A DNA stretch of 64,000 bases from Escherichia coli (GCF_003334335.1 NZ_QOWQ01000001.1); one strand, 5' to 3'; shown: positions 25,785 through 30,317, counted from the stretch's first letter. Program-made: numbers and translations. The notes: generated from the letters alone by a model not told the origin.

Positions 25785-26330
25785 GTGGACGATTTGACCG
25801 CACAAGCCCTGAAAGATTTTACTGCACGCTACTGCGATGCGTGGCATGAAGAGCATAAAAGCTGGCCGTTAAGTGAGGAACTGTACGGTGTTCCTTCACC
25901 GTGCATTATTTCAACTACCGAAGATGCCGTATACTGGCAACCCCAGCCGTTTACCGGGGAACAAAATGTAAACGCGGTTGAACGCGCTTTTGATATTGTG
26001 ATACAACCCACAATTCATACCTTTTATACGACTCAGTTTGCCGGGGATATGCACGCGCAGTTTGGCGATATCAAACTGACATTGCTGCAAACCTGGAGTG
26101 AAGACGACTTCCGTCGGGTGCAGGAAAATCTGATTGGTCATCTGGTGACTCAGAAAAGGCTAAAACTGCCGCCCACACTATTTATCGCGACGCTGGAAGA
26201 AGAGTTAGAGGTCATCTCGGTGTGTAATCTCTCCGGTGAAGTGTGCAAAGAGACGCTGGGAACACGTAAACGGACGCATTTAGCCTCAAATCTTGCGGAA
26301 TTCCTTAATCAACTTAAGCCTCTTCTGTAA
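25785..26330 (+). CDS. syd: SecY-interacting protein Syd
   Basis: 181 aa, [40 protein letters not shown]. Confidence 0.88.
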
Positions 26331-26349
26331 TCCAAATACCCCATCTGGT

Positions 26350-26367
26350 TGTGAGAGATCTCTTACA
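26350..26367. promoter_or_regulatory. UvrY (BarA/UvrY two-component) binding palindrome upstream of csrB
   Basis: TGTGAGAGATCTCTTACA, perfect 18-bp palindrome about 175 nt upstream of the csrB 5' region; barA is encoded at 33252..36008 in this window. Confidence 0.65.
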
Positions 26368-26540
26368 GACTCTGTAGGAGATCGCTAGGAAATAAGCGAA
26401 TACTTAAAAAGATAAGAATCGTTATTTTCATTTAAAATCAAAATGTTGATTGTTAATTCTTAACTTTCATATGAAATTTTCCTTAAGGCATTGTCTGTAA
26501 GCGCCTTGTAAGACTTCGCGAAAAAGACGATTCTATCTTC

Positions 26541-26907
26541 GTCGACAGGGAGTCAGACAACGAAGTGAACATCAGGATGATGACACTTCTGCAGGACACA
26601 CCAGGATGGTGTTTCAGGGAAAGGCTTCTGGATGAAGCGAAGAGGATGACGCAGGACGCGTTAAAGGACACCTCCAGGATGGAGAATGAGAACCGGTCAG
26701 GATGATTCGGTGGGTCAGGAAGGCCAGGGACACTTCAGGATGAAGTATCACATCGGGGTGGTGTGAGCAGGAAGCAATAGTTCAGGATGAACGATTGGCC
26801 GCAAGGCCAGAGGAAAAGTTGTCAAGGATGAGCAGGGAGCAACAAAAGTAGCTGGAATGCTGCGAAACGAACCGGGAGCGCTGTGAATACAGTGCTCCCT
26901 TTTTTTA
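26541..26907 (+). ncRNA. csrB: CsrB regulatory RNA (CsrA-sequestering)
   Basis: About 367 nt with no long ORF; many CAGGA(U)G / AGGA hairpin-loop motifs (caggatgatg, accaggatggtg, tccaggatggag, tcaggatgattc, ttcaggatgaag, ttcaggatgaac, aaggatgagc); ends in terminator gggagcgctgtgaatacagtgctccc + T7. Confidence 0.9.
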
Positions 26908-26951
26908 TTCCTGCTATCCTTCGCGGCAGTTTTTCTTATTGAGGTTGCTTT

Positions 26952-27281
26952 ATGACCACTCATGACCGCGTTCGTCTCCAGTTGCAGGCGCTTGAAGCGT
27001 TACTGCGTGAACATCAGCACTGGCGAAACGATGAACCCCAGCCGCATCAATTTAATAGTACCCAACCGTTCTTTATGGACACCATGGAACCACTGGAGTG
27101 GTTGCAGTGGGTGCTGATCCCGCGAATGCACGATTTGTTAGATAACAAACAGCCGTTACCGGGCGCTTTTGCCGTTGCACCCTATTATGAAATGGCGCTG
27201 GCGACGGACCATCCGCAACGCGCGCTTATTCTGGCTGAGCTGGAAAAACTGGATGCTCTTTTTGCGGATGATGCGAGCTAA
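26952..27281 (+). CDS. yqcC: DUF446 protein YqcC
   Basis: 109 aa, MTTHDRVRLQLQALEALLREHQHW; stop overlaps truC start (TAATG). Confidence 0.85.
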   Translation: MTTHDRVRLQLQALEALLREHQHWRNDEPQPHQFNSTQPFFMDTMEPLEWLQWVLIPRMHDLLDNKQPLPGAFAVAPYYEMALATDHPQRALILAELEKLDALFADDAS

Positions 27282-28063
27282 TGCTGGAAATACTCTATCA
27301 GGATGAATGGCTGGTTGCGGTAAATAAACCCTCCGGCTGGCTGGTTCACCGCAGCTGGCTGGATCGCGACGAGAAAGTAGTGGTCATGCAAACCGTGCGT
27401 GACCAGATAGGCCAGCATGTTTTTACTGCTCATCGTCTGGACCGACCCACTTCTGGTGTGTTGTTGATGGGATTATCCAGCGAGGCCGGACGGCTGCTGG
27501 CACAACAGTTTGAACAGCACCAAATCCAGAAACGTTACCATGCGATTGTGCGCGGCTGGTTGATGGAAGAAGCGGTGCTGGATTATCCACTGGTGGAAGA
27601 ACTGGACAAAATCGCTGATAAATTTGCCCGCGAAGATAAAGGCCCGCAGCCAGCAGTGACGCATTATCGCGGTCTGGCGACCGTAGAAATGCCGGTAGCG
27701 ACCGGACGTTACCCGACCACGCGCTACGGCCTGGTGGAACTGGAGCCGAAAACCGGACGCAAACATCAGCTTCGCCGACATCTTGCCCATTTGCGTCATC
27801 CGATTATTGGCGATAGCAAACATGGCGATTTACGCCAGAATCGCAGCGGTGCTGAGCATTTTGGCCTCCAGCGGTTAATGCTACATGCCAGTCAGTTGTC
27901 ATTGACGCATCCTTTTACTGGCGAGCCGCTGACTATTCACGCGGGCCTGGACGACACCTGGATGCAGGCGTTATCACAATTTGGCTGGCGCGGTCTGCTT
28001 CCTGAAAATGAAAGGGTTGAGTTCAGTGCGCCATCGGGTCAGGATGGAGAGATAAGTTCCTAA
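27281..28063 (+). CDS. truC: tRNA pseudouridine(65) synthase
   Basis: 260 aa, [25 protein letters not shown]; RluA-family catalytic HRLDRPTSG. Confidence 0.9.
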
Positions 28064-28080
28064 TCCAGGGAGAAAACGGT

Positions 28081-28530
28081 ATGGCGGAAATTGGTATTTT
28101 TGTCGGCACCATGTACGGGAATTCACTGTTAGTGGCCGAAGAAGCGGAAGCGATTCTGACCGCGCAGGGCCACAAAGCAACGGTATTTGAAGATCCTGAA
28201 TTAAGCGACTGGCTGCCCTATCAGGATAAGTATGTTCTGGTGGTTACGTCCACGACCGGGCAGGGCGACCTTCCTGATAGCATTGTGCCACTCTTTCAGG
28301 GAATCAAAGATAGTCTGGGCTTCCAGCCGAATCTGCGTTATGGCGTGATTGCGCTCGGCGACAGTAGTTATGTGAATTTCTGCAATGGCGGCAAACAGTT
28401 CGATGCCTTGTTGCAGGAACAGAGCGCTCAGCGGGTTGGCGAAATGCTGTTGATTGACGCCAGTGAGAACCCGGAACCGGAAACGGAATCAAATCCGTGG
28501 GTCGAACAGTGGGGCACGCTGTTGTCCTGA
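28081..28530 (+). CDS. yqcA: Flavodoxin-like protein YqcA
   Basis: 149 aa, [26 protein letters not shown]; flavodoxin FMN-binding T/S-rich loop ([12 protein letters not shown]). Confidence 0.88.
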
Positions 28531-28964
28531 TATGTTCAGCGAGCGGTAAATGTCGTTTTAGCGGTGCTGAATCGAATCTTTTCAGGCAAATGCCAGTAAA
28601 AACTGCTTCATAGCGCGGATTTTTACTGGCGTTTGCCTGGAGTCAAGCGATCCATTTCATACTCTTCTTTATTTCTTCGTTTTAACCCTTCCTTTCTTGT
28701 TCTTGTTTTCATTTCCGTGAAGTGGATTCCACCGTCCAGGGCTAATGCCAAAATCGGGCCTCATTGAACGCATTAATGTTGTGTTGTTGCACGGTGAGCC
28801 GCTATGGCGCGCTTTTTATACTGCTATTGCCAGATATAAACACGCGCCGTATTCGGCGAACGACCTATAAAAACGGCAAAAAACACCCTACGTCACCTCT
28901 GATTTCCTGGCGATGTCGCAGTCCAGAGTGAGCGTGGCTAACGCGAATTTTCAGGAGTGCAACA

Positions 28965-30317
28965 ATGAGTTCTTTAAGTCAGGCTGCGAGCAGTGTGGAA
29001 AAACGCACAAATGCTCGTTACTGGATAGTGGTGATGTTGTTTATCGTCACATCCTTCAACTACGGCGACCGCGCTACGCTCTCTATCGCCGGTTCGGAAA
29101 TGGCCAAAGATATCGGCCTTGATCCCGTGGGAATGGGCTATGTGTTCTCTGCTTTCTCATGGGCTTATGTTATCGGGCAGATCCCTGGTGGCTGGTTGCT
29201 GGACCGTTTTGGTTCAAAACGCGTCTACTTCTGGTCGATCTTTATCTGGTCGATGTTTACCTTGCTGCAAGGCTTCGTCGATATCTTTAGTGGATTCGGC
29301 ATTATCGTTGCCCTGTTTACGCTGCGCTTCCTGGTCGGGCTTGCTGAAGCGCCATCTTTCCCCGGCAACAGTCGCATTGTTGCGGCCTGGTTTCCGGCGC
29401 AGGAAAGGGGAACGGCGGTGTCGATTTTTAACTCCGCTCAATACTTCGCAACGGTGATCTTCGCGCCGATTATGGGCTGGCTGACGCATGAAGTGGGCTG
29501 GTCACACGTCTTCTTCTTTATGGGCGGTCTGGGGATTGTCATCAGCTTTATCTGGTTGAAAGTCATCCACGAGCCAAATCAACATCCGGGGGTAAATAAG
29601 AAAGAGCTGGAGTACATCGCCGCGGGTGGTGCGCTGATCAATATGGATCAGCAAAACACCAAAGTTAAAGTGCCGTTCAGCGTGAAGTGGGGGCAGATCA
29701 AACAGCTGCTAGGGTCACGGATGATGATCGGCGTTTATATCGGTCAGTACTGTATCAACGCCCTGACTTACTTCTTTATTACCTGGTTCCCGGTTTATCT
29801 GGTGCAGGCACGCGGGATGTCGATTCTGAAAGCGGGCTTTGTGGCTTCCGTTCCGGCGGTTTGCGGTTTTATCGGCGGTGTGCTGGGTGGGATTATTTCC
29901 GACTGGCTGATGCGCCGCACGGGATCGCTGAACATTGCGCGTAAAACACCGATCGTAATGGGCATGTTGCTGTCGATGGTGATGGTGTTCTGCAACTACG
30001 TCAACGTTGAGTGGATGATCATCGGCTTTATGGCGCTGGCCTTCTTCGGTAAGGGCATCGGGGCGCTGGGTTGGGCAGTAATGGCAGATACCGCGCCAAA
30101 AGAGATCAGCGGTCTTTCCGGTGGCCTGTTCAACATGTTCGGTAACATTTCTGGCATCGTCACGCCAATCGCAATTGGTTATATCGTTGGCACGACTGGC
30201 TCGTTTAATGGGGCGCTGATTTATGTTGGTGTTCATGCCTTAATCGCGGTACTGAGCTACCTGGTGCTGGTGGGCGATATCAAGCGTATCGAGTTGAAAC
30301 CTGTTGCGGGGCAATAA
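28965..30317 (+). CDS. gudP: Glucarate/galactarate MFS transporter
   Basis: 450 aa, [43 protein letters not shown]. Confidence 0.9.

Follow-up and report, generated by a model that had tools for sequence, protein, structure and literature searches.

The stretch of Escherichia coli DNA analysed here (64,000 nt, hereafter the window) carries csrB, yqcC, truC, yqcA, an intergenic region of 434 nt, gudP and gudX, the same gene order as in MG1655. The position of csrB (26550-26909) was given by its Rfam match, and the flavodoxin gene yqcA (28081-28530, plus strand) and gudP (28965-30317, plus strand) were taken from the list of open reading frames; both correspond to genes annotated in MG1655 and yqcA is annotated in other strains as well. 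The yqcA-gudP intergenic region has no RefSeq annotation, and literature searches for yqcA with gudP or with terminator, and for gudP, gave no work on it. An open reading frame of 42 aa on the minus strand (28623-28751) was rejected as it covers non-conserved sequence.

A near-perfect 20-bp inverted repeat had been described after yqcA in a first-pass annotation of the window and this was confirmed. It begins 52 nt past the last base of the yqcA stop codon (28528-28530) and consists of a left arm (caggcaaatgccagtaaaaa, 28583-28602), a 17-nt loop (28603-28619) and a right arm (tttttactggcgtttgcctg, 28620-28639, starting with a run of five Ts), all read on the plus strand; its MG1655 position is 2,922,426-2,922,482, on the same strand as yqcA and gudP. 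The only position in the arms that is not Watson-Crick, T28591 against G28631, gives a U·G wobble in plus-strand RNA. The repeat search extended the arms imperfectly to 35 nt (77% complementarity, 28568-28654), and with arms up to 60 nt apart this is the longest inverted repeat of the window. Scanning the window for an arm at three or fewer mismatches found two matches, the two arms themselves, against 0.00 expected in the shuffled window. The plus-strand RNA folds into a helix of 20 + 4 bp at -36.8 kcal/mol compared with a mean of -12.7 for shuffled sequences (z -9.0, none of 200 shuffles equal), and the minus-strand RNA at -30.2 (z -7.9). Cruciform extrusion is unlikely given the 17-nt spacer.

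It was also correct that the full hairpin has no U-run on its 3' side (the flank is GAGTCAAGCG), but the T5 run inside the right arm had been missed. This run lies directly 3' of a weak inner stem in the loop (CTGC..GCGG, 4 bp, 8-nt loop, dG -2.8), probably the remnant of a terminator-like inner hairpin found in other genera. A simple terminator scan of 28000-29100 gave no plus-strand terminator, and PMC7815308 gives no Term-seq 3' end in its tables for 2,914,915-2,924,161, where low yqcA expression could hide one. With a stem of only 4 bp before the T5 run, a null scan and no listed 3' end, the verdict that the E. coli hairpin is not a canonical terminator stands.

All 5426 complete E. coli genomes searched have the intergenic region, each of them once, and a segment of 106 nt spanning the hairpin shows 99% identity or more in 4939 of them. 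Among sampled E. coli variants single-nucleotide changes were seen in the flank (28553, 28563 and 28578) and in the loop (28614), with none in the arms. Even in L004 and L005, divergent lineages of Escherichia, the arms are unchanged, and in a comparison of E. coli with L004 they differ at 0 of 40 positions and the loop at 10 of 17. In L001 the U·G pair has been replaced via changes in both arms, with AAATG and AAACG swapped between them. As the arms are invariant while the loop has changed at 10 of 17 positions, and as the 106-nt region is conserved, these comparisons indicate that the arms are probably under purifying selection. This bears on the idea that the repeat might be a functionless relic, an old region of terminator plus box made complementary in the Escherichia ancestor by a template switch. 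Template-switch correction is a known mechanism of quasi-palindrome mutation, and like quasi-palindromes of that origin the repeat is long, near-perfect and was perfected in one lineage by coordinated changes: four coordinated substitutions in Escherichia, relative to Citrobacter and Salmonella, made an extra 5 bp (CAGGC/GCCTG), and the L001 swap is what arm-to-arm templating would be expected to give. Quasi-palindromes are defined by mutational origin rather than by function, however, and the selection apparent on the arms, together with the near-identity of the surrounding 106 nt across E. coli, makes the relic distinctly unlikely in our judgement.

Two strains have rearrangements close by. 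In strain 2014C-4135 (L096, 6089-8700) the IS66-family element ISEc23 is inserted at 28647/28648, inside the conserved block D defined below, and separates the hairpin from the gudP promoter region. In strain EC6563 (L088, 2657 onward) gudPXD is deleted with a junction after 28687, leaving yqcA, the hairpin and 48 nt, which are followed by a small GC hairpin, a REP-like sequence and barA. These junctions, at 50 bp or less downstream, speak for the earlier suggestion of a recombination site or, more broadly, a mobile-element end (att site, REP/MITE-like repeat or IS target), but they are ordinary events, mutually different, and both lie outside the arms. With one copy per genome, no second copy in the window and vertical inheritance of the sequence with the locus across genera, the suggestion found no support and we regard it as barely credible.

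Conservation across enterobacteria was examined by comparing 80 yqcA loci from species-representative genomes, most of which have yqcA and gudP in synteny. The intergenic regions could be divided into two forms. Long forms (420-530 nt) occur in Escherichia, the C. koseri/amalonaticus/sedlakii group, S. enterica arizonae and diarizonae, Superficieibacter, Silvania, Phytobacter, Kosakonia and Raoultella. Their order from 5' to 3' is block A (CTGAATCGnGTTAGC), box B (GGCAwwTGCC plus an A-rich flank, at the left arm), a variable inner stem-loop, followed in most cases by a T5-T7 run, block C (GGCnTTTTCA, at the right-arm position), block D (GTCAAGCGAcctgTTTCACAC), a non-conserved spacer of 56-57 nt, block E (TTTTCATTTCCGTGAAG), box F (GGCTwATGCCnnAAA), box P (TGTTGTGTTGTTGCACGGTGAG), the -10 sequence TATACT and a structured leader. 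Outside Escherichia the long forms also have a canonical terminator (CCCTCCC..GGGAGGG with a T-rich tail) directly after yqcA, which Escherichia has lost. Short forms (280-390 nt; Enterobacter, the C. freundii group, Lelliottia, Buttiauxella and others) have E, F, P and the -10 sequence, at least in part, and lack A-D; unrelated GC hairpins or REP-like elements lie 3' of their yqcA. In loci that lack gudP in the 3 kb downstream of yqcA (E. albertii L011, together with L012, L014, L017, L019, L062, L064, L068 and L069) neither box B nor the hairpin was found. In E. albertii a different 9-bp GC hairpin, GCCCTCTGA..TCAGAGGGC, follows yqcA (L011, 3451-3490). The left-arm box is thus kept in the long forms and a good right-arm box is found only in Escherichia. 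On these alignments the repeat is the form taken in Escherichia by an older module that lies at the upstream end of gudP control, with the inner stem apparently decayed and the outer stem 5 bp longer.

In the window, block A (GCTGAATCGAATCTTT, 28566-28581; aCTGAATCGnGTTAGC in other genera) precedes the hairpin as a conserved segment, and we take it to resemble the half-palindrome TGAAwCG of LacI-family (Cra-type) sites. Box B (GGCAAATGCCAGTAA, 28585-28599, plus strand), a candidate distal CdaR-type box defined from the alignment and from position weight matrices (PWMs), occurs in all 29 long-form sequences of alignment A1 (about ten genera) with its G, C and C invariant. It is kept even in sequences whose block C is no pairing partner for it (outer helix about 50% Watson-Crick), and an RNA stem with the other arm would not by itself require the conserved palindromic core. 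Box C' (GGCAAACGCCAGTAA, 28623-28637, minus strand), a second, inverted copy of box B, is specific to Escherichia with a weaker match in L020, and matches to the matrix for gar box X (see below) about 342 nt upstream of the gudP ATG were correspondingly limited to the Escherichia loci and L020. Block D (GTCAAGCGATCCATTTCATACT, 28642-28663), recognized from the alignments and its spacing, has the core parts GTCAAGCGA...TTTCATACT. Its 3' end is overlapped by the pyrimidine-rich spacer (28651-28706, plus strand), which is of fixed length and non-conserved, and the distance from D to block E across this spacer is held in about 30 loci. Block E (TTTTCATTTCCGTGAAGT, 28706-28723), assigned on the same evidence as D, is the most conserved of the upstream blocks; blocks C-D and E look like direct repeats of TTTTCA..GTnAAG. 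Box F (GGCTAATGCCAAAAT, 28740-28754, plus strand), a proximal-region copy of the box supported by PWMs and spacing, is present in long and short forms and in nearly all loci. Box P (TTGTGTTGTTGCACGGTGAG, 28779-28798, plus strand, with TTGCAC at 28787-28792) is a candidate promoter-proximal activator box on the basis of spacing and layout, and TATACT at 28817-28822 (plus strand), conserved and picked as the -10 in the Citrobacter orthologue, is the probable gudP -10 hexamer.

Two other promoter-like sites were considered. TTGACT-16-AAAAAT on the minus strand (28646-28619, overlapping the right arm and directed towards yqcA) was dropped because its -10 is without the final T in other genera; its TTGAC is conserved and is part of block D. 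TTGCCT-N18-CATACT, on the plus strand within the module, scored 8/12, under the scan threshold, and was kept only for the possible second promoter module described below. Further downstream, in the gudP leader (28893-28932), a stem is conserved (TCACCTCTG / CAGAGTGA), and genera differ in it by compensatory changes (CTCTG/CAGAG, TTCTG/CAGAA, TTCGG/CCGGA and TCCTG/CAGGA). Possibly this is a structured element of the 5' UTR, immediately before the ribosome-binding site.

The distances between these elements are near-invariant even though about half of the intervening bases are not conserved. Box B occurs in 29 long-form loci, and in 26 of them it lies 154-156 bp from F, the exceptions being two Salmonella loci (146 bp, 9 bp shorter and so near one helical turn) and L048 (161 bp). 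B to D is 55-57 bp (47 in Salmonella, 62 in L048), D to E is 65-66 bp, E to F is 33 bp wherever both were located (27 in L073) and F to P is 47 bp wherever both were located (53 in L073, 48 in L075). Measured from core to core, B and C' are 43 bp apart, F and P 42 bp and the pair of boxes in the gar region 42 bp, where 43 bp amounts to four helical turns. The box thus has the fixed position and helical phasing relative to the promoter that we looked for in a CdaR-regulon box. Assemblies of DNA-bound protein impose rigid phasing of this kind, whereas an RNA hairpin at a 3' end has no need of it. GTTTGCC is offset from B by 46 nt and GTTGCAC from F by the same 46 nt, and TTTGCC is followed 19 nt later by CATACT, so that B, C' and D could possibly be a duplicated second promoter module of CdaR type with the box offset of F and P.

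The sequence of the box is shared with other control regions of the regulon. Alignment of the garP-garD intergenic region from seven genera showed a conserved box X (TTgrGCATATGCaCAtAA), a garP promoter-adjacent box (GCATTTGCACAATGAT, garP strand) and a CRP-like site. Also conserved, upstream of garD, is a palindrome of CRP type close to the consensus, GTGATCnnGATCACA (in E. coli TTGACATTGATCACA), at 7225-7245 of L082 and in the orthologues L089-L094; TA(A/T)ACTCCTG follows it. The shared motif was picked by eye before the statistical tests, for which PWMs were trained on one set of boxes and applied to the others. With a matrix trained only on gar box X of the seven genera and 127,972 window positions scored, the left arm ranked 5th, the right arm 19th and box F 26th, that is three of the top 26 matches lie in the 434-nt region where about 0.18 would be expected. 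Over the 80 loci, matches to this matrix are 10 times more frequent in the gud intergenic DNA than in flanking DNA and concentrate at two fixed positions, F and B. In the reciprocal direction, a matrix trained only on 28 gud F boxes gave box B as the best non-training match in 64 kb, with the right arm 7th, and box X as the top match in the 12-kb gar locus; the cross-trained matrices therefore recover each other's sites. It should be noted that with a 20-nt matrix mixing garP-proximal and X sites the arms ranked only about 100th, so the match depends on the gar box chosen and our claim is limited to the X-only and F-only matrices. Our argument does not depend on the bare 8-mer GCAWWTGC, which shows no enrichment in the window (7 found against 11.8 expected).

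The promoter of cdaR contains GGCATTTGCACAATG, nearly the same sequence as the proximal box of garP. Upstream of cdaR a single long block is invariant, TGCACAATG with TATGCT 20 nt later (TATTCT in Pantoea), which is unchanged in six genera from Escherichia out to Dickeya and Pantoea, and the invariant box within this promoter, GCAwTTGCACAATG, is a candidate for the core CdaR site. The promoter alignments of gudP, garP and cdaR thus give a common layout, TTGCAC-N24-TAT(A/G)CT, found at 28787-28822 of the window, at about 7000-7045 of L082 (minus strand) and at about 3403-3438 of L095. CdaR has been reported to raise its own expression (PMC7544201; PMC4551912). Our literature search found no paper defining a CdaR operator and no CdaR footprint, EMSA or ChIP data. 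A conserved motif recurs in the gud, gar and cdaR control regions, and as that of box B is met again about 85 bp upstream of the gudP start (placed from the TATACT -10), in the garP-garD region and at the cdaR promoter, it is most likely a CdaR site; the link from box to protein is by association with the regulon, and CdaR is the presumed rather than the established ligand. The suggestion that the repeat might bind a regulator of gudPXD has gained comparative support, since its arms match a box of the gudP, garP-garD and cdaR regions and lie at fixed spacing.

The same alignments contain signs of selection at the RNA level. When the E. coli structure was imposed on the 29 sequences of A1, 66.5% of cells could pair compared with 33-47% when partners were slid, pair 31/68 of the outer stem occurs as three Watson-Crick types (CG 10, AU 7, UA 3) and five of six inner-stem pairs differ in both partners. 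Among the non-Watson-Crick cells, G·U accounts for 23 on the plus strand against 9 on the minus strand (Escherichia, Citrobacter and Salmonella; these counts are not independent). The inner segment has a mean z of -1.8 over 22 loci and is weak in Escherichia (-0.9, the E. coli value, and -0.4), with values of -2 to -5.7 from differing sequences in Citrobacter, Superficieibacter, Raoultella and Kosakonia (-3 to -5.7 in the first three). Directly 3' of it, 17 of 32 loci have T5-T7 and three more have T4. The Citrobacter orthologue was scored as terminator-like on both strands (6 bp + GTTTTTAC). The hairpin beside the T-run is nevertheless weak in all loci (-1 to -9 kcal/mol), with the -2.8 of Escherichia at the weak end. 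Taking together the covariation, the self-complementary inner segments and the G·U strand bias, the ancestral element looks like a small terminator for yqcA transcription. Beyond the hairpin, the spacer 28651-28706 is 84% C+T in E. coli (27% C, 5% G), with C exceeding G in most long forms; this composition is compatible with Rho acting on read-through RNA, for which the spacer would be a possible rut-like tract, without being evidence of it.

These observations are the basis of a reading in which the element acts at the RNA level only, as the stem-loop at the 3' end of the truC-yqcA transcript, descended from an intrinsic terminator, with the likeness of its arms to promoter boxes being coincidental. 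Termination at the T5 run would then be weak, and the 24-bp helix would serve mainly as a barrier to 3' exonucleases after Rho-dependent termination, or as an RNase III substrate, setting the stability of yqcA mRNA and keeping read-through out of gudP. Transcripts ended by Rho are reportedly trimmed back to a stem-loop, according to one model. The placing just after yqcA, the very stable fold, the compensatory changes in both outer and inner helices, the terminator-like orthologue in Citrobacter, the self-complementary inner segments of many genera with a T-run next to them and the C-rich, G-poor tract of 56 nt downstream all fit, as do the loss of the CCCTCCC..GGGAGGG terminator, which leaves this hairpin as the only one after yqcA in Escherichia, and the unrelated hairpins or REP-like elements that take the equivalent place in short-form genera. 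Against it, the E. coli stem by the U-run is of 4 bp only, the full hairpin is without a U-tail and no 3' end appears in the PMC7815308 tables, although yqcA is perhaps too weakly expressed. It also leaves unexplained why a palindromic left arm is conserved without a partner and matches F and X, and why its distance to the promoter elements is fixed within 1 bp. We would therefore treat an RNA-only function as a serious but minority possibility. The RNA stability hairpin of the first-pass annotation accordingly survives in part: pairing covariation and terminator-like orthologues favour it indirectly and the Term-seq tables list no end that would go with it.

A hairpin with a T-run directly 3' of a conserved, single-stranded-looking segment (CTGAATCGnGTTAGC) in many genera could also be the terminator of an unannotated sRNA, with block A as its seed, transcribed from a promoter of its own or processed out of the yqcA 3' UTR. 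The Rfam 15 covariance models (E <= 1), applied to 26000-29500 and to four orthologous loci (Salmonella, Citrobacter, Superficieibacter and Raoultella), matched only CsrB. In the RIL-seq-derived tables yqcA appears as CDS only (sRNA probability about 0.0002) with no 3' UTR or intergenic node, the Hfq CLASH tables have no entry for it, and among the Term-seq ends of PMC7815308 there is none at this place. With a poor terminator in E. coli in addition, such an sRNA is very improbable.

The explanation we prefer, to which we give an even chance of being right, is that the repeat is a distal pair of gud/gar-regulon boxes, probably for CdaR, inverted around a decayed terminator. The left arm would be the old, sequence-conserved palindromic box B, and in Escherichia the right arm would have been remodelled into a second, inverted copy of it, giving a B-C' geometry (43 bp) like that of the proximal F-P pair and the gar pair (42 bp). 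An activator oligomer on the distal pair might tune gudP induction in cooperation with the proximal boxes, at a distance of 155 bp, perhaps through a DNA loop. The stem-loop and T-run between the boxes would be the remnant of a small intrinsic terminator, decayed in E. coli, which in Citrobacter and other genera still looks functional and may insulate gudP from truC-yqcA read-through. Because B and C' are complementary, read-through RNA would also fold into a very stable hairpin, and this may be a useful side effect as a barrier at the 3' end. As the short-form genera have gudP, F and P without B-D, the distal boxes can be at most accessory. It also weighs against this explanation that the right-arm box is good only in Escherichia, and that independent protein sites need not match at non-informative positions, yet the arms do. 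The covarying pair 31/68 and the excess of plus-strand G·U cells likewise point to selection on pairing in addition to the two boxes. The near-identity of the arms at such positions, together with the covariation, suggests that pairing itself, or mutation templated from arm to arm, also matters.

The protein-site and RNA 3' hairpin readings are not mutually exclusive, and could be combined in a dual-use element in which the 20-nt box is a CdaR site in DNA and its transcribed inverted copies form the hairpin that ends or protects yqcA mRNA. We think this combination rather unlikely. If it were true, occupancy of the distal boxes and truC-yqcA read-through would influence each other, as in a regulated roadblock or insulator, and the Escherichia element would replace both canonical terminators of its relatives.

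Looping systems with auxiliary operators include araO2-araI, lacO3-O1 and galOE-OI. The gud region resembles such operator pairs in having a repeated box with a palindromic core, boxes paired about four turns apart, 155 ± 1 bp between the distal and proximal boxes and a distal module that is dispensable in some genera. It differs from them in that the distal boxes are complementary over 20 nt and flank a terminator-like stem-loop, in that the presumed protein, CdaR (PucR family), is without a defined operator in the literature searched, and in being known here from sequence alone. With bidirectional intrinsic terminators it shares a hairpin just 3' of a gene, A5 before and T5 after the inner stem, an orthologue scored on both strands (Citrobacter) and inner stems that covary across genera, but in E. 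coli the U-run is buried in a 24-bp helix without a 3' U-tail and the adjacent stem is of 4 bp. As with 3' stabilizer hairpins (REP-type, or stem-loops left by trimming after Rho), there is a very stable 3' UTR stem-loop next to a C-rich, G-poor tract, and REP-like elements take the equivalent place in short-form genera. Unlike REP it has no REP similarity, its arms contain a promoter-type box phased to the promoter, and instead of the many copies typical of REP/BIME there is one site per genome in the 5426 genomes. It is best described as an ordinary regulatory and 3' end feature and not as a new class.

The published CdaR glucarate biosensor uses as its promoter part the whole fragment from inside yqcA to the gudP ATG (PMC4551912, table S1). 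As this part contains the hairpin and all of the boxes, it does not discriminate among the sites. To our knowledge the CdaR binding site has so far not been defined experimentally. The comparative map gives testable candidate sites (B, C', F and P), the layout TTGCAC-N24-TAT(A/G)CT and fixed spacings, and it suggests which parts of the 434-nt gudP fragment might be trimmed or tuned. The more useful by-product of the analysis is this concrete proposal of what a CdaR box looks like and how gudP control is laid out. The locus would in addition be a case in which a terminator has decayed while its flanks were recruited or retained as candidate protein sites.
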